From: an uncultured Candidatus Saccharibacteria bacterium
GTDB taxonomy: Bacteria > Patescibacteriota > Doudnabacteria > UBA920
NCBI GenBank assembly: GCA_964561085.1
Contig: CAZLNP010000001.1
Coordinates: 75,335-139,334 of the forward strand
DNA: 64,000 nucleotides
Reading direction: 5' to 3'
In this document: in pieces, positions 7,332 to 28,319 of the stretch
How the letters are laid out: each line of letters opens with the position of its first letter
Numbering within the stretch: position 1 is the first letter of the stretch
The notes under the pieces: model-generated
Told to the model about the DNA's origin: nothing
Databases searched by the model: none
The model's input: only the letters and a program-made list of their open reading frames with translations
Translations under genes and position numbers: made by a program

Positions 7332-8573
7332 TTATACCATCTTCTCTGCGATGCGCTCTAACGCCACAATGTATGCTGCTGTTCTCATTGTAGTATTATG
7401 CTTTTCTTGAGCAGCGCGGACTGCGGCAAAGGCTGCGACCATGTGTTCATCAAGTTTCTTGAGAACATCTTCCTTAGTCCATGTTTCGTTATTCTGGTTC
7501 TGATACCACTCGAAGTAACTTACACATACTCCTCCGCTGTTTGCGAGGATATCTGGCACTACAGTCACACCGTTTTGCGCAAAGATGGCATCTGCTTCTG
7601 GAGTAGTTGGACCATTAGCCATTTCTAGAATAAATTTTGCTTTGACTTTTGCAGCGTTGTCGCCAGTTAAAACGTTTTCAAGTGCTGCTGGCACTAGAAC
7701 ATCGACATCAAGTTCAAGCAATTCTTCATTAGTAATTTCAATGGTACCCTCTAGCCCGCGCAAAGCCTTATTCGCCGCTTTATGCGCTTCTGCCGCAGCT
7801 AAATCTATTCCTTCAGCGTTAAAAATCCCGCCCTTGCTGTCTGACAAAGCAACCACTTTAAAACCATGCTCTTTTACGTACTCTGCTAAGTAAGTCGCTA
7901 CGTTACCGAAACCTTGAATTGCAATAGTCTTTCGGCCTTCTGTTGCAGAAGCGTCTGGCACAAGTCCAGCTGCCAAAGCTTCGCGAAGTACATAGCCACC
8001 ACCAAAACCAGTTGCTTCGGTGCGACCCTGGCTGCCACCATTCTCTACTGACTTACCAGTAATTACACCAGGAGCTTGCGTGCCGGTTTGTTTTTCAAAT
8101 TCATCACGCATCCACGCCATGATCTGTCCGTTAGTATTTACATCAGGCGCAGGCACATCTACTAAGGGTCCAAAGTTGCGGAACATTTGCTTCATGTAAC
8201 CGCGAGATAAACGCTCAAGTTCCCCTTCGCTCAACTCTTTCGGATTCACAATTATTCCACCCTTACCTCCCCCAAAAGGAACGTTAACTACGGCGTTTTT
8301 GAAAGTCATCCAAAAACTTAACGCGCGAACTTCATCTAAGTTTACATCTTGATGATATCTAATTCCGCCTTTGTATGGACCGCGTGCGTTGTTGTGCTGT
8401 GATCGAAACCCAGAAAAAATCTTTTGAGTTCCGTCGTCCATTTGTACTGGAATTGAAACTTCGATGTAACGATCTGGATTCTTTAATTGGTCTACGATTT
8501 TGGCGTCTGCGTTGCTAACTTGTGCCGCAGCATCTAGTTGGGCTTTTGCTGATTCGAAAGGATTGTTTGTCAT
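7332..8573 (-). CDS. gdhA: Glutamate dehydrogenase (NAD(P)+)
   Basis: KGGIRYH...VNVPFGGGKGG...GFGNVA motifs diagnostic for Glu/Leu/Phe/Val dehydrogenase family, 413 aa. Confidence 0.95.
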   Translation of the reverse strand: MTNNPFESAKAQLDAAAQVSNADAKIVDQLKNPDRYIEVSIPVQMDDGTQKIFSGFRSQHNNARGPYKGGIRYHQDVNLDEVRALSFWMTFKNAVVNVPFGGGKGGIIVNPKELSEGELERLSRGYMKQMFRNFGPLVDVPAPDVNTNGQIMAWMRDEFEKQTGTQAPGVITGKSVENGGSQGRTEATGFGGGYVLREALAAGLVPDASATEGRKTIAIQGFGNVATYLAEYVKEHGFKVVALSDSKGGIFNAEGIDLAAAEAHKAANKALRGLEGTIEITNEELLELDVDVLVPAALENVLTGDNAAKVKAKFILEMANGPTTPEADAIFAQNGVTVVPDILANSGGVCVSYFEWYQNQNNETWTKEDVLKKLDEHMVAAFAAVRAAQEKHNTTMRTAAYIVALERIAEKMV

Positions 8574-10065: not shown

Positions 10066-13000
10066 TTAGAACCCCAGCACTCCAGCAGCACGGGTCACAA
10101 GAACTTGGGTCTGTTGAAGAAGTTTGTCTGCAGTATTAGCTGCTACTGCTGTAATTGGGTTGTATCCCCAAGAAGATAGGACTTCCATGGAAGGAATACC
10201 AGCTAGAGCGTTGTCTTTAATGACTTGAAGAGTACCACTGTTGTTAATTAGAGTTCCTGATCTGTGGGTAGAGTTAGGATCAGAGATATTGTCTGTTGAA
10301 GTCATGAAAGAGACATCTCCATACAAGGCATTAGCAAAGGAGAAGCCTTGAGCTTTGAACACCTTCTCAGAAACAAATCCTGCTTTCATTCCACCAGTGA
10401 TTAGGTAACAAGTGCCTTTGTCTGTACCACGATCTGAGCAAGTGATTGAGCCATCTCTTGGAGGAATGAATGATCCTACCGGAAGAGTTAGATCAGAGCT
10501 GCGAGCGGGAACTGCATTGCTCCAAGTGTTAAAGCCATATGAAAGGTATGCACCTGCTGAAGTGTAAGGCCTGCGTTTACCATCTGAAGTAAGAGTGTAG
10601 ATGGTTCCAGTCGAGTCTACGATGTTAGTACCTACTGGATGGCGAGTGACAGAGCCGGAGGTTGAGCCAGATGCAGAAGCTGTGCCAAACAGTGCGAACA
10701 TTGAGAAACCGCCTGTTTCGCAAGTCACAGTATTTGCATTTGTATCTACTGTGCAAGGAGCTAGCGAAGACCAAGTTCCTGAGCTATATCGCCAAACCAC
10801 AAGAGATGATTCACTGATACCATCTATCTCATCATCTTCATAAGAGAAAGTTAAAGTAATAGGATCATTAAAAGAAGTTACGGATGTCCCAATTCCTGTT
10901 AAGGCTTTCAAGTCGTATGTGTGGCCATTTACAGGGTTTAACCCTGTAGGCATTCCAGAAGCGATTAATGCATCTGCAGTATTTATTTGCTTAATCTGGA
11001 ATACAGACTCTGCCCCAACAGCTCCAGCAGGGATATCTAATTCAATTCCAGAATCCCCATCTGTTAATTCAACCGTGCCTCCAGTAGCATTAGAAACATT
11101 ATCACCTATTTCACTTTCTACTTCTGCAGAACCAGTACAACCGTCAGTTGTAAATGTTGCACTAGAACTTGAAGTAGAAACAGATGAAGCGTCTACCGAT
11201 ACCACACTGTAGTGGTATGTAGTACAAGCAGCAAGGGAAGAGATTGTCTTTGAGTGTGAAAGTACTCGTGGAGAAGTATCCGTTACTGCGGAGGTCTCTG
11301 TGTGAGTAGAAGTAAGTCCGTATGTTACACCAGTAGAAGCAAGAGAGCCTGTTGTCCAAGTGATAACCGCACTAGTGGTCGCAGGATTAACACTAATAGC
11401 GGAAATTACTGGGCCAGTTGTATCGATTACCAAAGCCTTGTTGGCAGCTAAGTTAGTAGTCGGAACGAAGTTTACCATGGCATGAGCATCAAGATCAGCG
11501 ATGGTTCCAGAAATAGTTTTAACGGTTAAGTCATCGGTCGAATCACCAGCTTGAACTGTGTAATTACAACTTCCACTGGTCGCGCTAGTGACTGTAAAAG
11601 TACAGGTCCTGTCTGTCGCACCAGTTTCCAATGTCACTGTGACGTTGCCAGTTGAAGTAACAGCCTTCGAGAAGGTGACATCAATGTCTATTACTTCACC
11701 AACGCTGTATGTACCATTAGCTTTGTCAGAAGAAACATTAGTAATAGTTGGAGCGGAAGAATCTAGGGTTACAGGGTGATCAAAGTGAACTGCCCAGTTG
11801 TACAAAGTGTTGCTGTACAAAGATGGGTACGGGTCTGTATCACGCAAGTTCCCAGCTGCGCTGCCAGCATTTTGTGCACCAGTGTTTGTTCCAGGCACAC
11901 CTGTATAAGCGTATCTTAAGCGTTGGTTATTGCCTGTTGGAGTACCGCTTAGAGTAACTCTAACTGTATCGGTGTCAACTAACTCAACTGAGCTAATTGT
12001 TGCCGATGAAGTTGAGTCGTAATATTCAAATCCATAGTTTGTGCGGGCACTAACTAGAGTTGTATCAAAAGCTAGTTGCCCTGCAGGGACATGGAAGTCT
12101 GCCAAAATTACGTTCCCTGTACGAGTAACAGTGTCTGGGCTCAATGGGCGCCAAGTCTCATGATCTATAGCAACTTTCTTAATTACTTTCGCATGATACT
12201 CCCCTAACCAACGGGAACTTGCTGCAGTTAAGTGATGTCGATCTGAGTAGCTAAAGAAGTATTTTGGAGCAACTAGTACGATCTCATCTGGATTATCTTC
12301 CGCTGCATACAATTGATAGATTGGGATTTCCGAAGTAGCATCGTTAGCGTAAGAAGACATGAAAGAACTCATCTGGTCGATGAACATGTAAACCTCATTA
12401 CTCTGTCCAGTAATTGCTTTTACATCAGTATCGTAATCGTTCTGCCATTCTTCTAAGTAACCCTGATATGTTGCTCCACTTACATTATTGAAGTTATCAG
12501 TTTCACCATGAATATTAGTTACGCCCATTACACGAGACACTCGGCCAAGAGACAAAGCAGCGCTTTTTGCATTCGTAACTTGGTTCATCGCATTAGTATA
12601 TGGCCCTGTCCCCTTTTTCAGCTGGGAATATGTATAACCACTAACTCCATGGAGCGACATAACTGTATCTAAATCATTGCCGGTATCGTTGAAAGTCAAA
12701 GAGTTTGCAATCGCACTACTCATGGTTTCAACACTGCTTTCTATCAAAGCTGTGAAGCTACCGCCAGCACCCATTCCACCAGAACCACCGGTTAACATTT
12801 TGTTAGAGTAAGGTTGTGTAGTCGAAAGGGCTGGGCTTGCAGCAACACCAACAGACAAACTTTGACCTGTAGACAGAATTTGGTTTAAATAATTGATTGT
12901 AGCAACTTGGCTAGTTGCAGAACTAAGAGTTGCGGATCCAGTTGTCGGTGCAGTTGCACTACCTGGCGTTACTTCAAACTTCAGGTACATGCCAATATCG

Positions 13001-15348
13001 TCTTCATCTACTATATACGTAGTACTAGTAGCGCCAGAAATAGCAGAATAGCTGCCACCAGCGCTTGTAGCAGTTAGCCATCTGAAAGTAGAACCTGATT
13101 CCGAGTTGCCGTTCACGTCTACAAAGGTGTACGTTCCTGTAAGTTGCTCCCCAACTGCTGCATTCCCTGAAATAGCTACACCTGTCGCAGTTGGCGCGGT
13201 TGGAGTTGCAGAAACTGGACGAGCTGTAGCTGTAGATGATGGATCACTTGTACCATTGCTATTAATTCCAGATACGCGGAAGTTATAATTCAAACCGTTA
13301 GTTAATCCTGTAACCGTAGCTCCTGTGGAAGTAGAAGTGCCATCAGAAAAAGTTAACCAGGTCCCAGAAGTACTGAGCTTGTATTCAACTAAGTAATCAG
13401 TAATTGCAGCGCCGTTGTCTGCTCCAGCAGTCCAAGTCAACGCTACCTGTCCGTCACCAGGTGTTGCACCTAAACCAGATGGAGCAGCTGGGCCAGTTGC
13501 GGGTTCTATAATTTGTACATTATCTAAGTCGCTAGTACCAGTACTACTCATTGCACCCAGCCAGAACCCTTCGTCAGTAAATGTGCCAGATGTAATAGTT
13601 GCGCTTGGTGTTCCAGAACCATTTACAAACACGCTCGCACCTCCACCTTGGAGCGCCGTTAAGGTTAAGGTGAATGGAACTCCATTTGTACAAGATGTGA
13701 ATCCGCTCAAAGTTTGAGGTGATGCAGATGGACCGGATCCAGCAACGTTTGACCCACCAGTCCAGTAATACAATTCCCAGTTCGTTGCATTAGCTAAAAG
13801 AATATAAGATGATGTTCCTACTCCAGTGAAAACTAAATCACCATAGCCAATTGCTACTGGGCCCACACCCGAACCACAAGATGACCTAGTAACAGTAACT
13901 GTAATACTTACATCGCCGTTAGTTCTATCATATGTTTGTACTGTACTCAGTCCAGCGCCACCCCATGCACCAGTACCGGTTATATTTAGATCTCCATTTT
14001 GTTGAACGTTTCCAACAGTCCCTCCCGTACCACCTGGATCAAGCTCAGTCCATTTGTCAGTATCAATAGTGGTGCCAGTAAAATCATCTGACATAGCAAA
14101 GGTATTTGGAATACCGTTAGCTGTACTGGAAACAGGGCCAGTTCCTACAGAGTTAGTAGCAGAAACGCGGAAGTTATATGTAGAACCGTTTACTAAGCCA
14201 GTAACTGTTGCCCCAGTTGAGCCTGATGTGCCGTCGGAAAAAGTAGTCCAAGTAGTGGGCTCAGTGGAAAGTTTATACTCTACTATATAGTCAGTAATAG
14301 CCGCGCCGCCGTTGGTAAGAGGTGCGGACCAAGTCAAAGTTGATTGTCCGCTCGTTCCGCTAGATGCAGACAAGCCTTGCGGTGCAGATGGGACACTTAA
14401 CGCGGGAGTTGCGGTCGCTGTACTGGAAGGTACGCCGGTGCCCACCGAGTTAGTCGCAGAGACGCGGAAATTATAGCTCAACCCATTTGTTAAACCGGTT
14501 ACTGTAGTAGCCGCTGTAGTTGATGTACCGTCTGAAAAAGTAGTCCAAGTAGTTGGTTCGCTAGCCAATTTATATTCGACTAAGTAATCAGTAATAGCCG
14601 CCCCACCATTGCTAACAGGAGCTGTCCATGTTAATCCCATTGCAGTGCTGGCAGGTGTTGTTGTAAGTCCAGTTGGAGCGTCAGGGGCCGTCGCAGCACT
14701 TGCGCTAGCAATCACAACGTTATCAATTAACGTAGCTGTGCCGGAATGCCCCGAAAGGAAAAAACCTTTGTTGGTAAAAGTACCGCCGGTCAATGTCGCT
14801 GCCGCGGTGCCACTCCCGTTAATGTATAGAGCAGCGCCACTAGTGGAATCAATAGCGATGCGGGCACTAAAAGCCACGCCGTTGGTACAGCTAAAAGCTG
14901 TGGTAATATTTTCAGCATTACCATTAGCAAGCTGTCGGGAGAAATAAACTGTATTTGATACAACGTACAGAGTATAAGACTGTCCGCCGCCGGTCAACAC
15001 CCCAGGATCTCCATATCCAATACCAAAAATACTACTACCACTAGCGCAAGTCACATCAGCTGTCATCTCTAATCCCCCAACAGACCTATCATATGTATCG
15101 TCAGTAACCAAATAGTTGTTACCCCAAGAAGCAGAACCTGTCATGCTCAAAGACCCATTCTGTTGAATGTTCCCAGAAGTTCCCCCTACGCCACCAGCAT
15201 CTGTCTCATTCCATTTTACTGTATTAATAGTGGTTCCAGTAAAATCATCTGATAAAAGAGTCGATGCCTGGGAAAGATTAAACGTACTAGTAATGATTCC
15301 TGTCACTGCAAGAACTGCTATGAGCGTATATATGGACTTTTTGAACAT
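10066..15348 (-). CDS. Giant secreted surface protein (1760 aa): signal peptide, tandem LamG/ConA-like + fibronectin type III modules, SASA/SGNH-like esterase-like domain, Ig-like and FN3 domains
   Basis: N-terminal MFKKSIYTLIAVLAVTG signal/anchor. Repeated DDFTGTTI(N/D)T.KW modules, each followed by FN3-like PSAP..LTWTAP..GGAAITDY.VEYK...Y.FRVSA.N units. Central region has GQSLSVG, reminiscent of the sialate-O-acetylesterase GQSN motif. Near-identical ~200-bp DNA tandem repeats (approx 14150-14350 vs 14445-14640). Confidence 0.8.
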   Translation of the reverse strand: MFKKSIYTLIAVLAVTGIITSTFNLSQASTLLSDDFTGTTINTVKWNETDAGGVGGTSGNIQQNGSLSMTGSASWGNNYLVTDDTYDRSVGGLEMTADVTCASGSSIFGIGYGDPGVLTGGGQSYTLYVVSNTVYFSRQLANGNAENITTAFSCTNGVAFSARIAIDSTSGAALYINGSGTAAATLTGGTFTNKGFFLSGHSGTATLIDNVVIASASAATAPDAPTGLTTTPASTAMGLTWTAPVSNGGAAITDYLVEYKLASEPTTWTTFSDGTSTTAATTVTGLTNGLSYNFRVSATNSVGTGVPSSTATATPALSVPSAPQGLSASSGTSGQSTLTWSAPLTNGGAAITDYIVEYKLSTEPTTWTTFSDGTSGSTGATVTGLVNGSTYNFRVSATNSVGTGPVSSTANGIPNTFAMSDDFTGTTIDTDKWTELDPGGTGGTVGNVQQNGDLNITGTGAWGGAGLSTVQTYDRTNGDVSITVTVTRSSCGSGVGPVAIGYGDLVFTGVGTSSYILLANATNWELYYWTGGSNVAGSGPSASPQTLSGFTSCTNGVPFTLTLTALQGGGASVFVNGSGTPSATITSGTFTDEGFWLGAMSSTGTSDLDNVQIIEPATGPAAPSGLGATPGDGQVALTWTAGADNGAAITDYLVEYKLSTSGTWLTFSDGTSTSTGATVTGLTNGLNYNFRVSGINSNGTSDPSSTATARPVSATPTAPTATGVAISGNAAVGEQLTGTYTFVDVNGNSESGSTFRWLTATSAGGSYSAISGATSTTYIVDEDDIGMYLKFEVTPGSATAPTTGSATLSSATSQVATINYLNQILSTGQSLSVGVAASPALSTTQPYSNKMLTGGSGGMGAGGSFTALIESSVETMSSAIANSLTFNDTGNDLDTVMSLHGVSGYTYSQLKKGTGPYTNAMNQVTNAKSAALSLGRVSRVMGVTNIHGETDNFNNVSGATYQGYLEEWQNDYDTDVKAITGQSNEVYMFIDQMSSFMSSYANDATSEIPIYQLYAAEDNPDEIVLVAPKYFFSYSDRHHLTAASSRWLGEYHAKVIKKVAIDHETWRPLSPDTVTRTGNVILADFHVPAGQLAFDTTLVSARTNYGFEYYDSTSSATISSVELVDTDTVRVTLSGTPTGNNQRLRYAYTGVPGTNTGAQNAGSAAGNLRDTDPYPSLYSNTLYNWAVHFDHPVTLDSSAPTITNVSSDKANGTYSVGEVIDIDVTFSKAVTSTGNVTVTLETGATDRTCTFTVTSATSGSCNYTVQAGDSTDDLTVKTISGTIADLDAHAMVNFVPTTNLAANKALVIDTTGPVISAISVNPATTSAVITWTTGSLASTGVTYGLTSTHTETSAVTDTSPRVLSHSKTISSLAACTTYHYSVVSVDASSVSTSSSSATFTTDGCTGSAEVESEIGDNVSNATGGTVELTDGDSGIELDIPAGAVGAESVFQIKQINTADALIASGMPTGLNPVNGHTYDLKALTGIGTSVTSFNDPITLTFSYEDDEIDGISESSLVVWRYSSGTWSSLAPCTVDTNANTVTCETGGFSMFALFGTASASGSTSGSVTRHPVGTNIVDSTGTIYTLTSDGKRRPYTSAGAYLSYGFNTWSNAVPARSSDLTLPVGSFIPPRDGSITCSDRGTDKGTCYLITGGMKAGFVSEKVFKAQGFSFANALYGDVSFMTSTDNISDPNSTHRSGTLINNSGTLQVIKDNALAGIPSMEVLSSWGYNPITAVAANTADKLLQQTQVLVTRAAGVLGF

Positions 15349-15917: not shown

Positions 15918-15992
15918 GGCGCTATCGTCTAACGGTTAGGACAGACGGTTTTCATCCGTCAAATCGGAGTTCGATTCTCCGTAGCGCTACCA
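15918..15992 (+). tRNA. tRNA-Glu (anticodon TTC), CCA encoded
   Basis: 7-bp acceptor GGCGCTA/TAGCGCT (G1-U72), D-arm GTCT AACGGTTAGG AC, anticodon stem GACGG/CCGTC with loop TTTTCAT, T-arm CGGAG TTCGATT CTCCG, discriminator A then CCA. Confidence 0.85.
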
Positions 15993-17452
15993 CCTAACAT
16001 TTTATCCCTTTTGGAGATAGGCAAACATTCTTTTTTCCAATTGGTTATTACATTTTTATCACTTAGAGAAAAGTTTTCCACTAAACTTTTCACAAGACGG
16101 CGTCGGGATTCTTCCGACGCTGTTTTGTATGCAATGGTTGGGCTTTTAAGCAGTTTTCCAAGGTTTTCCATTTTCAGCATCGATTCAGCATTTTCAGACT
16201 GTACGCCATTTAATTGTTCAGTATATTCAATTTTTTTGTTTAACAATTTTGACTTCATGGATTGATAATCTTCGCTACTGATACTTTTGTCCAAAAATCG
16301 ATCCATTATATCGTCAAGCTGTTTCTCTACTTTATGAATTTCAAATATCCATTTAGCAGTAAGCTCCCCCTGTTGGCTTTTCAAGTCTTCCCTTAACTGT
16401 CCGATTGCTTTCAAAAACATTACTACTTCTTCATCCGAAAATTCAATACCCTTTAGTTCTTCAAAAAACTGTTCATCTACAAGTTCTTCTAACAAATTAT
16501 ATTTATGTTCTGCGCTGCGGCAGTTGTAGTACTTATAATAAACATTTCTATGTACTTTAGTTGAAGAAATACATCTTAATGGTCTATCGCAGGTAGGACA
16601 ATTAAGCATTCCTTGAAATACATACAACCGTTTTCTTTTATGCTTAAAGCTCTTCTTGTCTAACACTTCCTGAACTTTATCAAATAAAGATTTAGTAATG
16701 ATCGGTTGATGAATACCTTTGAAATCTCCTTTATTAGTCCACCGTACGATTCCGTAGTAAAATGGGTTTCTAAACATTTTATAAAGTGTTTTGTGTTTTA
16801 CCAAACCACCGTCATTATTCCTTAACCCCATTTCTTTTAACTTATCCTGTAAAGGTATAATCCCATACAAACCAGTAGCAAACATTTCGAATGCTTGTTT
16901 TACAAGTCTACTTTGAACAGGGTCAGGTTCTTTGAAACCTTTTTTAGAATCTAAATAACCGATTGGAGCTCTTGATGGAAAAAGTCCTTGTTCTAACATT
17001 CTATCAAATGCTGTATTTACTTTAACCCGCAATCTTTGGCTATAGACTGTTGCCTGCCCCCATAAATCATAAATTCTTGAAAGGTCATCGTCTGATTGAG
17101 TTGTGAGATTTTCAGCAGCAAAGTGAAAGTGATAGCCTTGTTCAATAAGTTTGTAAAAATTTCCAATATCTTGGTAATTCCTTGACGATCTGTCCACGGT
17201 AGCAAAGCAAATTCCAGCTAACTTTTCTTTCTTTAATCTTTGTATTAACATGCCAAACAACTTTCTCCCAGGACGAAAGGAAGATTCTACCCCCTCAAAG
17301 AAGTCAACTATTTCTAACCCTCTCTGTTTTGCATATAGTTCTATTTGTTTCTTTTGAATTTCTGGACTCCAGTTTGTTGCTTGGTCTTTTGAACTGACCC
17401 GTACATAAGCTAAGAATTTATTATTAGATAATTTTTTCATGTTGTCCTTCAT
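15959..17452 (-). CDS. Large serine recombinase (resolvase catalytic domain + recombinase domain + zinc ribbon + coiled coil)
   Basis: AYVRVSSKDQ catalytic serine motif near N-terminus, CPTCDRPLRC...C zinc ribbon, 497 aa; C-terminal codons overlap the tRNA-Glu 3' half. Confidence 0.9.
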   Translation of the reverse strand: MKDNMKKLSNNKFLAYVRVSSKDQATNWSPEIQKKQIELYAKQRGLEIVDFFEGVESSFRPGRKLFGMLIQRLKKEKLAGICFATVDRSSRNYQDIGNFYKLIEQGYHFHFAAENLTTQSDDDLSRIYDLWGQATVYSQRLRVKVNTAFDRMLEQGLFPSRAPIGYLDSKKGFKEPDPVQSRLVKQAFEMFATGLYGIIPLQDKLKEMGLRNNDGGLVKHKTLYKMFRNPFYYGIVRWTNKGDFKGIHQPIITKSLFDKVQEVLDKKSFKHKRKRLYVFQGMLNCPTCDRPLRCISSTKVHRNVYYKYYNCRSAEHKYNLLEELVDEQFFEELKGIEFSDEEVVMFLKAIGQLREDLKSQQGELTAKWIFEIHKVEKQLDDIMDRFLDKSISSEDYQSMKSKLLNKKIEYTEQLNGVQSENAESMLKMENLGKLLKSPTIAYKTASEESRRRLVKSLVENFSLSDKNVITNWKKECLPISKRDKMLGGSATENRTPI

Positions 17453-18176
17453 ATATGTTTCCTTTATATGATATTTTATTTTTATAAATATCGTTAGTTA
17501 ATATTTTTTTAATTGTTGACGGCCACCACCTGTTACCTCCACGCTTTGTTGGTATGCTTCGCAAATTTAGGTATGCAGCAATTTTAGTAAGATTCATTCT
17601 CTTATAGCGTTTTAAGTGAAAGATTTTTCTTACAATATCTGCCTCTGCTTGATTTGTTATCAACTGTCCGTCTTTGCAGTCGTATCCGTAAATTTCTCCT
17701 CCATGCCACCTCCCCTTAGCTGCAGCCGAAGCGCGTCCGTTGGTCAGTCGCATTGTAATCATGGCTCTTTCGAATTCACTAAAAGCACCTATAATTTGCC
17801 TAAACAGTTTACGAGTTGCATCATTACTACCTAAGTCTGGTTCAGTTAGTGAGATTAGCTGTTTATTTAGTTTTATAAACTCTCTTATTAGTCCTTCCTG
17901 GATATAGAGGTCACGGGCTAATCTCGTCAGTGACAAAATTACAACTGCTTTTACTTCGCTATTAACTTCTAAATACTGCATCATTTGTGCCAGCGCTGGC
18001 CTATGTTCCAAACCGCCACTTACACCATCGTCTTTAAACCATTCAACTATTTCTATACCGTTCTTTTTTGCATAATTTGATATTGATTCAACTTGTAATT
18101 CAATGTTGTCATTTTCCGCTTGTAGTGCAGTTGATACTCTGCAATATGCTATCGCTTGCATTTTCGTTCCTTCCAT
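17424..18176 (-). CDS. Serine recombinase, short form (resolvase domain + partial recombinase domain, no zinc ribbon)
   Basis: AIAYCRVSTALQ catalytic motif; 250 aa; 3' end overlaps the start of the 497-aa recombinase by 29 nt. Confidence 0.8.
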   Translation of the reverse strand: MEGTKMQAIAYCRVSTALQAENDNIELQVESISNYAKKNGIEIVEWFKDDGVSGGLEHRPALAQMMQYLEVNSEVKAVVILSLTRLARDLYIQEGLIREFIKLNKQLISLTEPDLGSNDATRKLFRQIIGAFSEFERAMITMRLTNGRASAAAKGRWHGGEIYGYDCKDGQLITNQAEADIVRKIFHLKRYKRMNLTKIAAYLNLRSIPTKRGGNRWWPSTIKKILTNDIYKNKISYKGNIYEGQHEKII

Positions 18177-18472: not shown

Positions 18473-18609
18473 TGTTGTGTCGTATATAAATAGTAATCAC
18501 TATAGATGGCAAAGTACAATCTAGTCCGCAACTAGCCACAAAAGTATTCCCCTGTATACTCTTTATTAAATCCTCCTAAAATGGTGTCTATGGTGTATAT
18601 GCTGTCAGG

Positions 18610-20190
18610 CTAAAATGGTATGTCAGATTCATTTAGTGTATCCAAGGCCGCTTCGTCTGAATCTTCCATGACACCAGAAACAGCATTGACACCACTCTCG
18701 TAAATCTTCGTAAATGTAATCAGTCGTGCGCCGTCCTTATCGCGAGAAACTTTGATTCCGAGCGCCATCAGGTTTGTTGCGACAACTTGCAGTCTACGCC
18801 ATAGCCAATTCGGTGTTTTTGGAAATTCTCTCTGTCTTGTGTCTTGTTTTAGCTTTATTGCCAGTTCTTGAAGCACTAATAGCAAGTCAGTTGGAGTAGC
18901 TTGATAGTGCGTTTTGTTTTCCATGAATGCAATAACAACTTGCGCCACAGGAGAGTCATCAATCGCTTCAGCATTTTGTCTGATTAGGTTTTGAGTTAAC
19001 GCATCTATAAATTCTTCTGCCGTGTGTCCAATCGCAATACTGATAGCACAGCCCCACCGCACAAAATCTGCCATACGGAAGTTGCTTATTTGTTCTGGCA
19101 GTTCCATTCCCGGGTATACTTTAATGGATTTTTGTACTGCTCCAATTATTGCGCCTAAGAGCTGCGGTCGTGCTTGTTCAAACTCTGCCATTAACACACC
19201 TTCTTCTTTATAGTTTTGAGGTCTTTCTAGTTCAATAATTAGTGAACGTTCCAACAAATCAGGTTTACTAACCACAAGATTAATTCCGTTCATGGCAACG
19301 ACACGGCGGAAGCTGTAAATAATATCATCGTCATCTGAATAGAGTTCTCGCTTTGACATACCTTCGCCAGTCACGGTTCTGCATAATAGGTCTGAAAATT
19401 CAGGTTTTATAGGTGATAGATTATCAAGCGGTAAGAAATAATGATGGCTGGCTAACTGCACATACTCTCTGCTGTCGCCATGTGCGGTTAAAGTTTCCAT
19501 TATTGATGGGTCAATTAGCCCACGGAGCAGTTTGAACAAAGTAGTTTTTCTTGACCCTTGCGGTCCGTGAACAACTAATATCGGGTGCGGGAAGTTAGGC
19601 AACACAGACGCTACGAGCCATACAAGCAGTAATAATTTTTGACGTGGTTCTTTCGGAGTAGGAATGAAGTCAAATACTTTTTCTAACTCTGCTCCTGGTA
19701 TAGGTGCAACCTGCAGGCGCTGATGTCCGAATCTGTAAAACAGAATTGGTGCAGGGTCTAGTATTTTCCACTCATCTTTATTTATCAGTACCGCACGACC
19801 ATCACCTAAATCGTAAATTATACCGTTATCAGTTTCAGCAATTCTTACATGTAGCTTTATTTCTTCGCTGTCATGCGTTGCGTGTCCTTCTAGCGTTCTA
19901 ACTGCTGTTTCTATAGTGCCAGACGACACGGCCTTGCCTAATTCATCCCAACCGAGATGCGACAACCATGACTTGAATCCACGCGACCTCAGCTTTAGAG
20001 TCTTATGTCCATTCTCCTCTACAGCTATAAAGCCGTTATCAAACTGGTCATGAAATAGTTTAACGTTTCTGTTCAGTACCAGTTCAACAAGCTGTTCGGT
20101 AAGATTCTTTTCACTATCTGATTCAACTATAGATTCAGCTACAGAATCTTGGGTTTCTTTTTCTATAATTTCGTTTTCTTTGTCTGTCAT
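18610..20190 (-). CDS. Phage/plasmid primase-associated helicase (D5/P4-type P-loop NTPase)
   Basis: Walker A VHGPQGSRKTT about 190 aa from N-terminus, acidic C-terminus; gene order immediately after a primase zinc-finger protein. Confidence 0.6.
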   Translation of the reverse strand: MTDKENEIIEKETQDSVAESIVESDSEKNLTEQLVELVLNRNVKLFHDQFDNGFIAVEENGHKTLKLRSRGFKSWLSHLGWDELGKAVSSGTIETAVRTLEGHATHDSEEIKLHVRIAETDNGIIYDLGDGRAVLINKDEWKILDPAPILFYRFGHQRLQVAPIPGAELEKVFDFIPTPKEPRQKLLLLVWLVASVLPNFPHPILVVHGPQGSRKTTLFKLLRGLIDPSIMETLTAHGDSREYVQLASHHYFLPLDNLSPIKPEFSDLLCRTVTGEGMSKRELYSDDDDIIYSFRRVVAMNGINLVVSKPDLLERSLIIELERPQNYKEEGVLMAEFEQARPQLLGAIIGAVQKSIKVYPGMELPEQISNFRMADFVRWGCAISIAIGHTAEEFIDALTQNLIRQNAEAIDDSPVAQVVIAFMENKTHYQATPTDLLLVLQELAIKLKQDTRQREFPKTPNWLWRRLQVVATNLMALGIKVSRDKDGARLITFTKIYESGVNAVSGVMEDSDEAALDTLNESDIPF

Positions 20191-20193
20191 ATT

Positions 20194-20817
20194 TTATAGT
20201 CCTAGTAAGTACTTGACGGCTTCGGGGAAAGAATAGCCGTGAAGTAACATTATGAATTTAATTGAGTTGCCCCCTTCTTGGCAGCCGAAACACCAACAAG
20301 AATTTGTTTGTGAGTAAACTGTGAATGACGGGCGTTTGTCTTCGTGGAATGGGCATAGCCCTGTGAGATTGTTTCCACTACGCCTTAGTCTGCCGTCGTA
20401 CAAATCAGCTATTGGAATTTGAGTGGCCATTTCTATTTGCTCATCTGTCAATCGTCCTTTAGGCTTCTTGCCACTGGCGACATAAACTTGCCGTCTCAGT
20501 CTTGCTATATGCTTAATTACTTCAAGTAGTTGTAGCCCGTCAGTGTGCTTAACCAATTCTCTGCAAAACCAGTATTCAAAGTCAGTTTTTGTACTGTCAT
20601 ATAATCGTTCCAGTTTCCGCAATATTGATTTCTTGACGGCTTTCTTTACGATTTGCCATTCCTTAATCTTGCTTGGCAGTACAGACTTGATTTCAGGGAA
20701 TATCGATAACAACTCAGCATCTGTATATTTGCGCTTTGAATCCCTATGTTCAGATTCCAGTTCTTCATACATGAGCCACTGCTCATAATCTTTATCGACA
20801 TGACTAGCTTGTGTCAT
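20194..20817 (-). CDS. DnaG-type primase zinc-finger (CHC2) domain protein
   Basis: C-terminal CPFHEDKRPSFTVY...CWCFGCQEGGNSIKF matches the zf-CHC2 consensus; 3-nt gap to the helicase gene. Confidence 0.6.
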   Translation of the reverse strand: MTQASHVDKDYEQWLMYEELESEHRDSKRKYTDAELLSIFPEIKSVLPSKIKEWQIVKKAVKKSILRKLERLYDSTKTDFEYWFCRELVKHTDGLQLLEVIKHIARLRRQVYVASGKKPKGRLTDEQIEMATQIPIADLYDGRLRRSGNNLTGLCPFHEDKRPSFTVYSQTNSCWCFGCQEGGNSIKFIMLLHGYSFPEAVKYLLGL

Positions 20818-21168
20818 CAGTATCTCCTTTCGACTGTTTACAATCGTTATCGAAAATATGAATGACAGCTTCTAAGTAATCTCCGTACTTGTCTAGCACT
20901 TCTTCTATATTCATTTGTTTTCTTTCTGCATAAATGCAAAAAGAGCTTTCTCAAGCAGACAAACAAAACACCCGTTCGGTGATCGTTTATCAACATAAGA
21001 AAGCCCTTCTAGTTTTTACGTATATTCTAGAAGCAGGTGTCGCACCCCCTATACTCAACGGAGCGGTAGGATAGATATACCTCGCTTATCAATGCAGTAC
21101 TGTTTAAAAAGAACTCTTTACTTAATTACTAGGTAATTATAGCAGATTCAAACAACCATGTCAAAAAA

Positions 21169-21501
21169 TTATTTAATAATTTCAAAATCTCTATTGCATT
21201 TAGGGTTAGAGCAGGTGTAGAACTCCGTCAAATTCTTAGAAACAAACCGCATCCCCTGTTTTAAAAGGCCACTCTCATGAAATGGACAATGATAACTTTT
21301 TAGTTCAATTTCAGTATTTAAAGATAAGCTAATTTTCTTGTAAGCAGACTGCTCATCAAAAATTTGTACGGTGAACTCTAAACCACATTTCTCACAAACT
21401 AAATCTAACGCACTATTATCAGTAACTTTATTAAAACGCTTCCGACCCATAGGGTTGCTACATTTTATGCAATAAATTTTCTCTGCTATTTGATTACTCA
21501 T
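21169..21501 (-). CDS. hypothetical double zinc-ribbon protein (110 aa)
   Basis: Four CxxC pairs: CIKC...CEKC and CPFH...CSNPKC. Confidence 0.4.
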   Translation of the reverse strand: MSNQIAEKIYCIKCSNPMGRKRFNKVTDNSALDLVCEKCGLEFTVQIFDEQSAYKKISLSLNTEIELKSYHCPFHESGLLKQGMRFVSKNLTEFYTCSNPKCNRDFEIIK

Positions 21502-21793
21502 ATATATATTGTAGTATTAGTTAACTTCTCTAGACGTGATTTCTTACATTCGGTTAGTACCGAGTGTCCAAGACCCTAAAGCAAGTGACTATAATATAAC
21601 AAAATAACCCCTCTCAGAATAGGCATATAAATACCTATAACCAATACAAAAAGTGTTCTCTGAGGCCATTCTAGGACTTCATGGAATGCTTCAAAGTGCC
21701 TTGTTTATAGTACTTTTAGCTGTAATGGTATATAATTAACCTACAATTCTGCCTAAACCTTCAAGTAATTGAAGGCATGGCGCAATACTAAAC

Positions 21794-21922
21794 CCACTAC
21801 TACATGAAGGCGGCTATCCGTCTTGCTTACCATGTAGTAGTGGTTATCCTTCCGAAAGGTTGGATAAGGCAAGCGGGTAGCCCCTTTTGTTTTTTAAAAT
21901 AATTAAATCCACTACTACAATG
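21794..21922 (+). repeat. iteron-like element: three copies of CCACTACTACA(A)TG (two forming a 13-bp inverted repeat) plus TTATCC/GGATAA hairpin and T-tract
   Basis: Copies at 21794-21806, 21831-21843 (inverted) and 21909-21922 (overlapping the start codon of the downstream ORF). Confidence 0.5.
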
Positions 21923-22477
21923 AAAAAATGCCCATACTGCGCTGAAGAAATGCAGGACGAAGCAGTCGTTTGCAAGCACTGCAAAAAAGATATTCCCAAA
22001 CAAGACAAGCACTTACCAACGAATGTACCCAACTTTAATCCCACATTAAATAATAGAGTTTTAATTGCTATAGTAATTATTATTGCATTGTTATGCCTTT
22101 ACGCCATAATGCGAATGAAGCAAGGCAATACTTCCGTGCCGGCAACCCCGGCAGCAACTACAAATTCAATAAGCAACCAGTCGCTAGAACACAAACTGGC
22201 TTCTATACATTCTAACGACACAGCTCCACCGCAAGAACTGGTTAATCAGTTTAAAGACCAGTTATATAAACTAAGTTTAGTATGTCCGAAAAATACCGAA
22301 CAACAACTAAGCGATTATATCGTGAAAGCACATCAACTAATCACTGAAAAGCGTCCTGTATTTACACTTCTTGAAGTTAGTCAGGGATTTTATACTAGTA
22401 TTCCAAAAACAAATACCACTACAGACTGCGTTGATTACATGACAATATACATGGCTTTAGTCCTAAAAGGTTACTAA
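21920..22477 (+). CDS. hypothetical zinc-ribbon + single-TM membrane protein
   Basis: [23 protein letters not shown] then hydrophobic [17 protein letters not shown]; start re-set from the track TTG to ATG 21920. Confidence 0.45.
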
Positions 22478-23067: not shown

Positions 23068-23676
23068 TTATTCTATGCCATGTTTATTCTTCCAATCCTT
23101 GAAAAGCTGCTCTGTTCGCTGATGTTGCTCATCTGTTAGTTCCCCTACAATTCCAGACTGTTCTTCTAGGTCAATATTTTTAGAAAGTGTTATATAATCT
23201 TTAACCATTTTTGCCTTAGTTTCTAAATCAAACAGACTATCACCGTTATAAGATAATTCTTTAATTCTGCCGTGGCTTAAACTATCTCTTATGCTTTTTA
23301 TTTTCCATAAGAATTTAGTATGTGCGGTTTTGCCCCTGACTTTCTCTACAAAGAAGATTCTATCGCCGAACGAAATTTCATTCGGTTTATACGCAGGGTG
23401 AGTAGGATCAACTTTCTCCATTTTCAAACCTATATTAGTTCTGATAAAATTGTCCAAATCTTCTGTTGAATTACCCAACATTTCATTAACTACATTAGCC
23501 GCTTGGGTTAAGGTGGAATTTAAATCCTGTTCAACGGTATGACAAAACCAAAAAGCAAATTCAACAGTTAATCTTTCTTCTTTTGAAATCTTAAGCATCG
23601 TATCAGGAATTAAGTTAGCAAAATCCTGACTGCTGTATTGCTTCAATAAATTTTCTAAATCAATTTCTTCAGTCAT
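23068..23676 (-). CDS. HEPN-like protein (Rx4H motif)
   Basis: KIKSIRDSLSHGRIKE contains R-x4-H; 202 aa; start overlaps the upstream DUF4238-like gene by 8 nt. Confidence 0.4.
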   Translation of the reverse strand: MTEEIDLENLLKQYSSQDFANLIPDTMLKISKEERLTVEFAFWFCHTVEQDLNSTLTQAANVVNEMLGNSTEDLDNFIRTNIGLKMEKVDPTHPAYKPNEISFGDRIFFVEKVRGKTAHTKFLWKIKSIRDSLSHGRIKELSYNGDSLFDLETKAKMVKDYITLSKNIDLEEQSGIVGELTDEQHQRTEQLFKDWKNKHGIE

Positions 23677-24547
23677 GCTTAATTTCCTTTGCTAATTTTT
23701 CTAACACTTCTTTATCATTATGGAATAGGTATCTATCACTACGTGATGCTAGTGCTAAATTGATTTCATCTACACTCTTTCCACTAATGGTCGCTATTAA
23801 ATTTTCTTCGTGATCATCTAGCATTAACAAGCATACCTTTGAAGTTATAGGAAATACCTTTATTACTCCTCTAACCAGAAACCCCATAGCGGGCGGCTTC
23901 TTCCCTTCAATAAAAGTCATTACAAACGGCGAACTTGTAGTGATAAAAGAATAATTTTCTGGAGCAAAGCAGTATCGCCATTCTAGGTGCAAAAAATTAG
24001 CTGCGAATTGCACACCTGAATTAACAACCATTTCAAGGTGCTGGTTCTTAAACTTTGTATCCGAATCAAGCAGCTCAGTTAAATTGTCATGTAGTTCCCT
24101 CGCAGAGATACCTGGTGTATCCGATGGCAAGAAATCTGGAGTCTTAACTTCATGTTTTTCCTCCGGAATATCCCATTCTTTCATAATTTCCATGAGTTGA
24201 TTCATTGAATCTCTATTCTGATTCTCATAACTAGGTACTCGCACAAATTGATAAGCAATAAATAGCGCTAATTTATCTTTTTCCAATTGTGTCGGGCGTT
24301 CTTTGTTCTCAATTTTCTCTATTATTGGTTTGATATCGCTTTCCATCTGAGCAAAGTATCTTTCAATGTCATTATTTTTCTCACCTTCATAAACCAAAGA
24401 GTAGTAATTACTAATAACCGCCACGTTTTCAAGTGACGGTGAATAGTATTTATTTTCTAACTTATCGTAGACCCAAACCTTTTCGTTATCGGCAAAACCT
24501 CTTAAATAGGTTTGAGGTACATAGTGGTGTCGTTTAGGTTCGCTCAT
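23669..24547 (-). CDS. DUF4238-like protein
   Basis: N-terminal RHHYVPQTYLRGF and C-terminal FITTSSPFVM match what I recall of the DUF4238 family profile; 292 aa, the typical size. Confidence 0.45.
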   Translation of the reverse strand: MSEPKRHHYVPQTYLRGFADNEKVWVYDKLENKYYSPSLENVAVISNYYSLVYEGEKNNDIERYFAQMESDIKPIIEKIENKERPTQLEKDKLALFIAYQFVRVPSYENQNRDSMNQLMEIMKEWDIPEEKHEVKTPDFLPSDTPGISARELHDNLTELLDSDTKFKNQHLEMVVNSGVQFAANFLHLEWRYCFAPENYSFITTSSPFVMTFIEGKKPPAMGFLVRGVIKVFPITSKVCLLMLDDHEENLIATISGKSVDEINLALASRSDRYLFHNDKEVLEKLAKEIKHD

Positions 24548-27007: not shown

Positions 27008-27541
27008 ATGAAAATTGCAATATTTAGTTCGTGGCTTCCAGAAGTCAATGAGTATAACCAAAAACTTGCGATACAAATTGCTGAATATTTAGCCGATAAA
27101 GATATCACGGTTGTCACTGGTGGATGTAGCGGTATTCCCGCAGCAGTCGTTGAAGCAGCGCACAATAAAGGAGTAAAAACTATCGGATACTTCCCACATA
27201 AAAGTAAGGAAGAATACCATGACCGCCAGCACGAAAAAAATATTCATGCTTTAGACTATTATTCAACTGCTCATTTTATTTCCGGTTTTACAGCTCGTAG
27301 CTTAGAAATGATCAAAAATGTAGATGCGGCTATAGTCTTGAACGGTAGGATTGGCACCCTATCAGAATTTGGAATTGCAATCGAGGAAGGTTTACCATTA
27401 GCAGTGATTGAGGGCACTGGCGGTATTACTGATGAATTACGAAATCTTGTAAAAGTAGCTCAAAAAGAATTCCCTAATAACGAGGTAATATTCGAACAAG
27501 ACTACAAAAAAGCTATTGATATGCTAATATCAAACCATTAA
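27008..27541 (+). CDS. LOG/TIGR00725-like Rossmann-fold nucleotide-binding protein (SLOG superfamily)
   Basis: VVTGGCSGIPAAVVEAA glycine-rich motif and ...GRIGTLSEF... typical of LOG-like phosphoribohydrolase fold. Confidence 0.6.
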   Translation: MKIAIFSSWLPEVNEYNQKLAIQIAEYLADKDITVVTGGCSGIPAAVVEAAHNKGVKTIGYFPHKSKEEYHDRQHEKNIHALDYYSTAHFISGFTARSLEMIKNVDAAIVLNGRIGTLSEFGIAIEEGLPLAVIEGTGGITDELRNLVKVAQKEFPNNEVIFEQDYKKAIDMLISNH

Positions 27542-28241: not shown

Positions 28242-28319
28242 GCAATTAGTATACCATCTTCAATTAAAGGTATGACACCAGAGACACCATTTTTGTCATA
28301 ATATATATTCTATTAACCA

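Follow-up and report, generated by a model that had tools for sequence, protein, structure and literature searches.

LOOT RNA, a predicted SF3 helicase and a primase-type zinc-finger protein in a probable mobile element at a tRNA-Glu gene

Phage P4 integrates at a tRNA gene and relies on a primase-helicase (alpha) for its replication, and SCC elements, like the one described here, use serine recombinases. In SaPI, the origin directly follows rep, and a C-terminal winged helix reads its oppositely oriented iterons (PMC9371898); Cch2 binds double-stranded DNA downstream of its own gene (PMC7581432). In P4, the CI RNA pairs with an upstream (seqA) and a downstream (seqC) sequence (PMC4825925). 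LOOT (RF03000) is a curated Rfam RNA family for which the literature searched gives neither function nor host; where that literature names LOOT, its genomic setting, a hypervariable Watson-Crick helix P3 and a start-codon mimic go unmentioned (the discovery paper's supplement was outside the search).

The region considered here is part of a 64-kb stretch of DNA (the window, meaning all of the DNA analysed). As a whole it probably carries the core replication and control functions of a mobile element inserted at a tRNA-Glu gene, and the identity of its individual parts can be given with high confidence. Judged from relatives, the host is probably a bacterium of the Patescibacteria (CPR). The left junction is placed at a tRNA-Glu (UUC) gene (15918-15992, + strand; ARAGORN, and 60.6 bits with the Rfam tRNA model), whose 3' half is overlapped by the end of a recombinase gene; the same overlap of tRNA and recombinase 3' end is found in L002, L127 and L125, three relatives of the locus. 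GC content drops at 16 kb, from 0.44-0.46 to 0.35. The overlapping gene encodes a large serine recombinase of 497 aa (15959-17452, -; Pfam Resolvase, Recombinase and Zn_ribbon_recom), and next to it is that of a second, shorter serine recombinase of 250 aa (17424-18176, -; Pfam Resolvase, 2.3e-33, and Recombinase, 3.6e-11), a pair also present in L002 and L123. A recombinase at the insertion junction, the compositional break and the recurrence of this synteny in relatives fit a serine-recombinase integrative element. For the far (right) end and att sites, a search for a duplicated tRNA segment found none. Four adjacent ORFs compared with PHROGs for phage-responsive repressor, packaging and interference genes had no functionally annotated match, and no satellite-type genes were recognised among ORFs further along with Pfam and PADLOC, an absence that is weak evidence in CPR.

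The replication genes are on the minus strand. The largest encodes a 526-aa protein (18610-20190) that is, judged by fold, a predicted D5/SaPI-type SF3 helicase: a family-conserved N-terminal domain is followed by a P-loop ATPase and by a C-terminal helix-strand region resembling a winged helix, the combination of N-terminal domain and SF3 ATPase core being that of D5 and SaPI5 PriRep. None of the D5 and primase-helicase models in Pfam and NCBIfam matches it in sequence, and the only matches are weak ones to the P-loop (Rad17, E 0.0028; phrog_2249, E 0.0011). An earlier note on this DNA had pointed to about 190 residues without an assigned domain ahead of Walker A, which is correct, some 200 residues preceding GPQGSRKT (G209-K215), and had suggested that they might hold a novel or diverged catalytic primase. 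That suggestion fails: almost all homologues align over 84-98% of this N-terminal region of about 190 residues, also where a PrimPol or Toprim domain of their own stands in front of it, so it is part of the conserved helicase module and no hidden primase.

The gene before it encodes a 207-aa protein (20194-20817, -) with a helical N-terminal domain and a DnaG-type zinc-binding domain. The C-terminal primase zinc finger recognised earlier is plain in zf-CHC2 (PF01807, residues 130-204, E=1.9e-22), and TIGR01391 dnaG matches over this part alone. The AlphaFold model (pLDDT 88) has four helices followed by the DnaG zinc-binding domain, and it is through that domain only that Foldseek finds PDB matches, 1d0q and 2au3. 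The protein belongs to a conserved family (40 proteins in alignment A1, most of 186-231 aa) in which C155, C176 and C179 are invariant. Its N-terminus was rightly said to be without TOPRIM or AEP motifs: for TOPRIM, there is no Pfam or NCBIfam match beyond the zinc finger, the fold is all-helical and it has no fold match. No catalytic primase domain was found in the helicase, in the 207-aa protein or among ORFs of at least 90 aa scanned to about 40.8 kb. Structure model, Foldseek and ORF scans agree on a module made up of a D5-like helicase and a primase-type zinc finger, much as first described, without a catalytic primase domain.

A small minus-strand ORF does overlap the start of the zinc-finger gene, about 10 nt from where it had been placed: it spans 20804-20914, has 36 codons plus stop and is the putative first gene of the replication operon, and gene calling on an identical Logan contig picked up its equivalent. 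By eye, this 36-aa ORF has a loose motif in common with small proteins that precede the zinc-finger gene in L123 and L002. Ahead of it are the promoter and structured leader of the operon (20915-21164, -), identified by promoter scan and folding (leader z = -4.06); the promoter is TTGACA-17-TATAAT (12/12), with TG before the -10, from 21164 to 21136. A 110-aa zinc-ribbon protein with four CxxC motifs and weak zinc-ribbon matches (21169-21501, -) is encoded between the operon and the LOOT gene. Stop-codon readthrough joining the zinc-finger protein and the helicase, whose ORFs are in frame in the window and split by TAA-AAT, was considered and ruled out: the frame relation is lost in L123 and L125, and a 56-aa ORF intervenes in L002.

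From its consensus promoter this operon would yield the 36-aa protein, the 207-aa protein and the helicase, with primers made by an enzyme of the host, DnaG or another; template recognition or recruitment may fall to the zinc-binding protein. Among loci, the primase part around the conserved helicase is interchangeable (PrimPol, Toprim, RepB-like, or zinc finger alone), which makes these elements a natural system for the question of host-outsourced, helicase-coupled priming.

As in SaPI and SCCmec, the helicase may load itself at short repeats that end its own gene (18582-18694), and we lean towards placing a replication origin there. The candidate origin (18576-18694) surrounds the helicase stop codon, with copies of GACA(C/G)CA at 18582 and 18600 (-) and at 18670 and 18688 (+), besides degenerate ones, at spacings of 9 and 18 bp and in opposite orientation on either side of the stop codon. 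TRF reports a period of 9 at 18581-18606, and the segment contains an inverted repeat (I2). Four exact copies in 113 bp compare with about 0.1 expected per 280-nt span, and the cluster is at the same place in eight relatives, L123, L002 and L127 among them; five others have different repeat sequences at the helicase 3' end. By sequence, these are candidate iterons of the SaPI/SCC type. Against an origin, the segment between the two groups is coding sequence and no AT-rich spacer, and there are two extra GACACCA copies at 28274 and 28283.

The earlier note had proposed a different site for iterons or an origin: three copies of a 13-mer, two as a 13-bp inverted repeat and one at a start codon, accompanied by a second hairpin (21844-21867) and a T-run (21885-21895). 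All of these are present. There are exactly three copies of the repeat CCACTACTACA in the window, at 21794 (+), 21833 (-) and 21909 (+), and the first two copies form a perfect inverted repeat (21794-21806 / 21831-21843); if up to one mismatch is allowed, chance alone would give 0.79 matches, three are reached in 3 of 100 shuffles, and judged by count alone the three copies are only modestly unusual. Their proposed function is another matter. The segment 21750-21894 (+, about 150 nt) matches LOOT RNA in Rfam (50.3 bits, gathering score 46.4, model positions 1-121) and with a covariance model built here, R2 (51.7 bits, E 1.2e-14); covariation among relatives supports the assignment, and the fold has z = -5.14. 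On this sequence evidence the inverted repeat CCACTACTACATG is the 13-bp LOOT helix P3, and the supposed origin features are likewise parts of the RNA.

Its 5' domain (21750-21782, UGCCUAAACC...GGCAUGGCG) is present, with P1 (21750-21753 / 21779-21782) enclosing CCUAAAC, the P2 hairpin (21758-21764 / 21769-21775) and GCAUGG. As RF03000 requires, the long P3 is followed by a GAAA-tetraloop hairpin, P4 (21844-21867, loop CCGAAAGG), which is the former second hairpin; the former T-tract is the U tail (21885-21895) of the conserved 3' end. The P3 loop (21807-21827) pairs with the 3' tail (21868-21886) in a long-range pseudoknot helix of 19 bp (-29.8 kcal/mol), with the U run directly after it, and this combination would terminate most LOOT transcripts. 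The last Rfam hairpin, P5 (model positions 106-121), is absent: the pairs that the Rfam alignment imposes there are mismatched, in the R2 alignment the hairpin is deleted, and the corresponding sequence pairs with the P3 loop instead. The window RNA is read here as a variant without one peripheral hairpin. A -10-like element, TGGTATATAAT (21726-21736, +), 13 nt upstream of LOOT, is its putative promoter and would direct it divergently from the replication operon; the element is identical in L002, and TATAAT-like boxes precede LOOT, at about -30 to -18, in most of the other loci.

LOOT recurs beside the helicase and serine-recombinase module in Patescibacteria (CPR) loci. Rfam recognises it in L127, L124 and L002, all fetched via helicase homologues, and in six more loci, one of them (L135) with two copies. 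With the covariance models built here, 15 of 80 metagenome loci and 14 of 80 genome loci are LOOT-positive; 11 of these 14 genome records carry a lineage name, in every case CPR. In most helicase-anchored loci, LOOT and the helicase are on opposite strands, with LOOT about 0.5-2.5 kb upstream. LOOT is also found in phage-like contigs, without this helicase in the part of them that was fetched, and a helicase search in viral contigs gave no match. A first DNA pattern for LOOT (14 specified bases) was non-specific, with at least 120 matches, among which Rfam confirmed L106. Tighter patterns gave seven full-length LOOT matches (six distinct sequences); eight near-identical phage contigs that they also returned were false positives, because their 31-mer is the SD and start codon of a coding gene.

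MAFFT alignment of the divergent LOOTs was unusable, and single-sequence covariance models with realignment were used instead. In the resulting alignments, 95-97% of cells are paired, compared with about 40% in slid controls, and changes on both sides are seen in 30 of 33 and 38 of 43 pairs; G-U pairs in P2, P4, P5 and the long-range helix show which strand is transcribed. Double-sided changes affect 15 of the 19 pairs in the long-range helix, and the mean duplex energy of the P3 loop is -26.3 kcal/mol with its own tail and -14.7 with the tails of other loci. All LOOT copies studied have this 3' extension beyond the 121-position Rfam model, pairing with the P3 loop. P3 itself is near-purely Watson-Crick (2 G-U in 337 bp; no one-sided changes at 9 pairs in 21 sequences) and hypervariable: its arms are unrelated between elements whose LOOT is elsewhere 82-83% identical, yet they stay complementary.

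The third copy, CCACTACTACA then ATG (21909-21922, +), is a mimic of the P3 5' strand. It abuts the ATG at 21920 of the first gene after LOOT, which encodes a 185-aa protein (21920-22477, +; Pfam Zn_ribbon_3) that begins with a zinc ribbon and has a hydrophobic segment like a membrane span; in L346 and L381, too, an ORF after LOOT has an N-terminal CxxC...CxxC motif, which in L346 is a Pfam zinc ribbon and in L381 was recognised by eye. In 5 of about 37 LOOT loci, all independent (the window locus, L106, L188, L227 and L292), the P3 5' strand of the locus itself recurs perfectly, its copy ending 0-6 nt ahead of the next gene's ATG, and in a control with arms from other loci at least 8/9 was reached in only 4 of 982 comparisons. 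A relaxed search for partial P3-arm copies within 2.5 kb found about 1.0 per locus, close to the 0.84 with foreign arms, so a 12/14 match at 21510-21523 may be chance. The idea that the third copy is a regulatory site is kept as a putative one, with the change that it most likely acts at the RNA level.

With the third copy, the P3 5' strand is repeated over the next gene's ribosome-binding region, and the P3 3' strand could pair either inside LOOT or with the downstream mRNA. Such alternative pairing might form a strand-choice switch on the zinc-ribbon protein gene, in a layout like CI, seqA and seqC of phage P4; at the window locus this is a tentative proposal, with the balance somewhat against it. 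Since the mimic is present in so few LOOT loci, it cannot be LOOT's general function. P3 forms first in transcription, and its perfect 13-bp helix would have to open, which speaks against a switch, as would efficient termination at the tail, which would rarely leave the mimic on the same transcript; the near-absence of G-U in P3 is also needless for an ordinary RNA helix.

That near-absence would be natural if the 13-mers acted as DNA (iterons, an origin hairpin or cruciform, or recombinase or repressor sites), with the RNA fold secondary, as for a palindrome or hairpin needed on both strands, and P3 does adjoin replication genes in most helicase-anchored loci. Its fixed position in an RNA whose other four helices covary with one-strand G-U pairs makes this improbable, as do the unrelated arms, their variable spacing (P3 loops are about 22-32 nt) and the occurrence of LOOT on contigs without this helicase. 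Nor do the copies make an array, there being two arms and, in a minority of loci, one extra copy, and repeats with iteron geometry, the better candidates, are those at the helicase 3' end. Another possibility is a direct role in replication, LOOT being a primer or an origin transcript that stands in for the missing primase: it is adjacent to and divergent from the replication operon of an element without a catalytic primase. This is very improbable, because LOOT occurs equally with helicases fused to PrimPol (seven loci, including L188) or Toprim (L227), and also in the phage-like contigs.

A cis-acting sensor, riboswitch-like or protein-binding, is a different kind of alternative: the fold would set termination at the U tail and, where there is a mimic, exposure of the ribosome site. 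The complex, pseudoknotted and strongly covarying structure is in keeping with this, as are the start of LOOT near a -10-like box, a same-strand ORF within about 100 nt in the loci read, the U run after the final helix, and the order of 5' strand, 3' strand and mimic, which resembles a riboswitch expression platform. The genes downstream are mixed (zinc-ribbon, predicted membrane protein, unknowns), which a metabolite riboswitch would not usually show, there is no evident candidate ligand and Rfam classes LOOT as sRNA, all of which leaves a sensor unlikely. A broader reading, which we regard as doubtful, is that LOOT is the RNA by which specificity or immunity is determined in a broad class of Patescibacteria mobile elements that are temperate, with P3 as a barcode whose 3' strand would be antisense to a matching sequence at a target's ribosome site.

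LOOT now has a setting, in integrative elements and phage-like contigs, and every named host genome found belongs to Patescibacteria, a group with almost no characterised gene regulation. Its fold is corrected by a 19-bp helix between P3 loop and tail that is outside the current Rfam model. Two oddities are testable: P3 evolves much faster than the remaining LOOT yet avoids G-U, and some loci carry a start-region mimic.

Compared with described systems, the window RNA passes the gathering score of RF03000 and has its CCUAAAC-hairpin-GCAUGG 5' domain, long P3 and GAAA hairpin, but differs in lacking the last Rfam hairpin and in the 3' extension. The zinc-binding domain of the 207-aa protein is that of DnaG and T7 gp4-type primases in sequence and fold (PF01807, 1d0q, 2au3); unlike them, the protein has no TOPRIM RNA-polymerase domain, and its zinc domain is at the C-terminus, after a helical hairpin. 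In the relatives L186 and L193, a zinc finger is combined with Toprim upstream of the helicase. With SaPI Pri-Rep and SCCmec Cch the locus shares a helicase preceded by a priming-related gene and short opposite-orientation repeats at the helicase 3' end (PMC9371898, PMC7581432). It differs from them in that the helicase has no sequence-level family match, its partner is a zinc-binding domain only, the repeats straddle a stop codon rather than an AT-rich spacer, and the host is CPR-like, with no phage-interference genes seen. The likeness to P4 immunity is a central RNA segment complementary to upstream and downstream sequences of the same transcription unit (PMC4825925). There is no homology (the window contains no match at gathering score to any Rfam family but LOOT and tRNA), pairing upstream is with the opposite strand of a stable helix, and the downstream target is the ribosome-binding region of an operon divergent from the replication genes, whereas in P4 it is terminator control within the replication operon. 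If LOOT were a specificity determinant, it would represent an RNA-only regulatory logic comparable to P4 and P1 immunity, built on an unrelated and far more elaborate pseudoknotted scaffold.

The window holds exactly three copies of CCACTACTACA: two face each other as a perfect 13-bp inverted repeat, and the third adjoins the ATG at 21920. The earlier note had described these 13-mers correctly, as it had a second hairpin (21844-21867) and a T-run (21885-21895). Its reading of the 13-mers as iterons or an origin is not supported: Rfam assigns 21750-21882 (+) to the structured RNA LOOT (RF03000) with a score above the gathering score, and the two paired copies are its helix P3 (21794-21806 / 21831-21843, +). 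Our own model, built from 17 relatives, gives 51.7 bits (E ~1e-14) for 21750-21894. The second hairpin is helix P4, with a GAAA tetraloop (21844-21867, +), and the T-run is the conserved 3' tail of the RNA (21885-21895, +); the last Rfam hairpin is absent from this copy. A TATAAT-like box lies 13 nt upstream of LOOT, as in relatives. Many LOOT loci conserve an ACAA(C/T)TTAAT-like motif downstream of the -10 box and ahead of the first base pair of LOOT (21740-21749 in the window; within the upstream 20 nt of most loci); it probably forms a 5' leader that the Rfam model does not include. Here a known orphan RNA is present as a variant copy, in a setting that had not been recognised before, and no description of its structural and evolutionary features reported here was found in searchable papers.

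One such feature is a long-range helix, picked by RNAalifold without prompting, in which the P3 loop pairs with the conserved 3' tail (consensus ~CUGGYGGNGGGCUUUGUGUUU), past the end of the 121-position Rfam model. Aligned by structure across 27 sequences, the helix has 19 pairs that are 94.9% paired (~40% for slid controls), 15 of them with double-sided changes; loops paired with their own tails average -26.3 kcal/mol, and with the tails of other loci -14.7. The window's copy of the helix joins 21807-21827 to 21868-21886 (-29.8 kcal/mol), with UUGUUUUUU directly 3' of it, a terminator-like arrangement. P3 itself is 99.4% paired, with double-sided changes in 8 of 9 pairs and no one-sided (G-U) changes, and its sequences are unrelated between LOOTs that are 82-83% identical outside P3. 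Only 2 of 337 P3 pairs in 31 LOOTs are G-U, compared with ~6-18% in the other LOOT helices (our own tally of pair types). Because P3 avoids G-U, a role for it at the DNA level, or on both strands, keeps a small probability.

The third copy of the 13-mer has counterparts elsewhere. In five loci the P3 5' strand of the locus itself recurs 14-41 nt after the tail, just before the ATG of the next gene: CCACTACTACA in the window (gap to the ATG 0 nt), CCGCTACAG in L292 (1 nt), CCATGCAAAG in L188 (2 nt), CCGACTAAA in L227 (3 nt) and CCTACGCGAA in L106 (6 nt), the last four being other LOOT loci compared with the window. With arms from other loci, a match of at least 8 of 9 came up in just 4 of 982 comparisons; the remaining ~32 LOOTs have no such copy. 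Separately, 21510-21523 matches the P3 3' strand at 12 of 14 positions (TGTAGTATTAGTTA vs TGTAGTAGTGGTTA), 9 nt upstream of the start of a divergent 110-aa zinc-ribbon ORF, so that the start region of that mRNA would carry P3 5'-strand-like sequence; in a relaxed search, partial P3-arm matches of this kind were near chance level. In three loci that are otherwise unrelated (window 21920-22477, L346 3008-4102, L381 4972-6087), the next ORF downstream of LOOT carries an N-terminal CxxC...CxxC motif; Pfam recognises a zinc ribbon in L346 and, below its curated cut-off, in the window, and in L381 the motif is seen by eye only.

LOOT here lies within an inserted element, whose left junction is at a tRNA-Glu (15918-15992, +), into which the 3' end of a gene for a large serine recombinase extends; a second serine recombinase gene follows, and GC changes at 16 kb from 0.44-0.46 to 0.35. 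The right end was looked for and not found. On unrelated contigs the same parts recur in order: a small ORF, then genes for a zinc-finger protein (~200-250 aa), a helicase (~520-540 aa) and one or two serine recombinases, and lastly a tRNA that overlaps the recombinase end. The nearest named relative is a Candidatus Doudnabacteria genome (helicase identity 64%). In L124 the recombinase 3' end meets a group I intron match (10417-10627, 53.2 bits) in place of the plain tRNA seen in other loci, which suggests an intron-bearing tRNA as integration target. Cargo adjoining the module in the window (23068-24547, -) includes a DUF4238 protein matching the PADLOC candidate defence model DUF4238-Pers (E 3.3e-10) and overlapping a protein with a weak Apea-like HEPN match; a SLOG-domain protein (27008-27541) has faint ThsA/PsyrA similarity. 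There are also two very large ORFs, one of 1760 aa (10066-15348, -) with, by sequence, fibronectin-III-type-looking repeats behind a signal-like N-terminus, and one of 3653 aa (52907-63868, -).

The replication genes comprise a helicase ORF (18610-20190, -; 526 aa), a zinc-finger ORF (20194-20817, -; 207 aa) and a 36-aa ORF (20804-20914, -) overlapping the start of the latter. The first two are as the earlier note described them, and its reading of a zinc finger plus helicase without a catalytic primase holds up. The 207-aa protein is one of a conserved family of 40 (most 186-231 aa). In its predicted model (pLDDT 88) four helices, among them a long helical hairpin, make up the N-terminus and lead into a DnaG zinc-binding domain; this domain alone matches PDB entries, 1d0q and 2au3, and the protein has no TOPRIM or AEP fold. 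For the helicase, Pfam gives no useful match. The suggestion of a novel or diverged catalytic domain in the N-termini is not borne out: that of the 207-aa protein is helical in the model, and the first ~190 residues of the helicase, which include invariant positions, are part of the helicase module rather than a hidden primase, since they are covered at 84-98% in nearly all homologues, including those with PrimPol+PriCT, Toprim, RepB-primase or DUF3854 domains in front. A scan of ORFs of at least 90 aa, up to ~40.8 kb, found no catalytic primase domain. Another possibility is a readthrough fusion of the zinc-finger and helicase ORFs, which are in frame in the window; this is unlikely, because the frame relation is not conserved in relatives. 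Nor is LOOT a stand-in for the missing primase, since it occurs alike with zinc-finger, PrimPol-fused and Toprim-fused helicases. Upstream of these genes, 20915-21164 (-) may control the replication operon: it has a perfect TTGACA-17-TATAAT promoter (TG before the -10) and a ~215-nt leader whose fold is far better than those of shuffles (z -4.06). The leader includes a long imperfect hairpin (20931-21018) and another hairpin just before the 36-aa ORF.

Among loci fetched through the helicase, Rfam or our own models found LOOT in 15 of 80 from metagenomes and 14 of 80 from genomes, in most of them on the strand opposite to the helicase, some 0.5-2.5 kb upstream of it. Eleven of the 14 LOOT-positive genome records carry a lineage name, and all 11 are CPR (Yanofskybacteria, Moraniibacteriota, Saccharibacteria, Paceibacterota, Staskawiczbacteria, Parcubacteria, Doudnabacteria, Minisyncoccia). 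No LOOT passed the models in Peregrinibacteria, Peribacteria, Nitrospirota, Chloroflexi, proteobacterial or archaeal loci with the same helicase family; a Gracilibacteria locus (L256) gave a weak match (18.4 bits). LOOT also lies on IMG/VR contigs without this helicase in the stretch fetched; these have a terminase and a ParB-methylase (L346), a portal-like gene (weak match, L330) or a serine recombinase (L381, L106). One contig, L135, has two LOOT genes ~13 kb apart (7584-7731 and 20931-21073) with different P3 sequences, CCCGTCAAA and CGTACAGCA. Eight near-identical phage contigs (L302, L327, L349, L300, L314, L315, L326, L333) were rejected as false positives; their match is limited to 31 nt of the LOOT 5' domain, and there GGCATGGC is the SD and start codon of a small zinc-ribbon ORF.

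Better origin candidates than the 13-mers, as putative helicase-binding sites, are the GACA(C/G)CA repeats at the 3' end of the helicase gene. Four copies lie within 113 bp around the stop codon, two per orientation and 18 bp apart, with degenerate copies between (expected count ~0.1 per 280-nt span). The cluster holds its position in L123, L002, L210, L127, L211, L212, L214 and L217, and takes in 5 of the 6 copies in L123; more distant relatives have different short repeats there. About 9.7 kb away and in opposite orientation, 28272-28294 (+) reads ATGACACCAGAGACACCATTTTT, closely like these repeats, with two GACACCA copies 9 bp apart and then TTTT; it could be a second helicase-binding site or a marker of the element's far side.

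The identities of these parts, their joint recurrence and the RNA-level covariation are observed; from them we infer a mechanism in which the helicase would load itself at the repeats at the end of its own gene, with priming borrowed from the host. LOOT transcripts would mostly end at the tail, and at loci with the repeated strand the P3 3' strand could have two alternative pairing partners, one inside LOOT and one in the ribosome-binding region of the next gene. Known systems offer likenesses for both halves. Directly downstream of rep lies the SaPI origin, whose oppositely oriented iterons are read by a C-terminal winged helix (PMC9371898), a published layout that the window's repeats match, and SCCmec Cch2 binds dsDNA downstream of its own gene (PMC7581432), the place of the candidate origin here. 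In P4 (the system, not the helix), CI RNA pairs with seqA upstream and seqC downstream (PMC4825925), and the alternative pairing proposed for the P3 3' strand of LOOT is formally like it.
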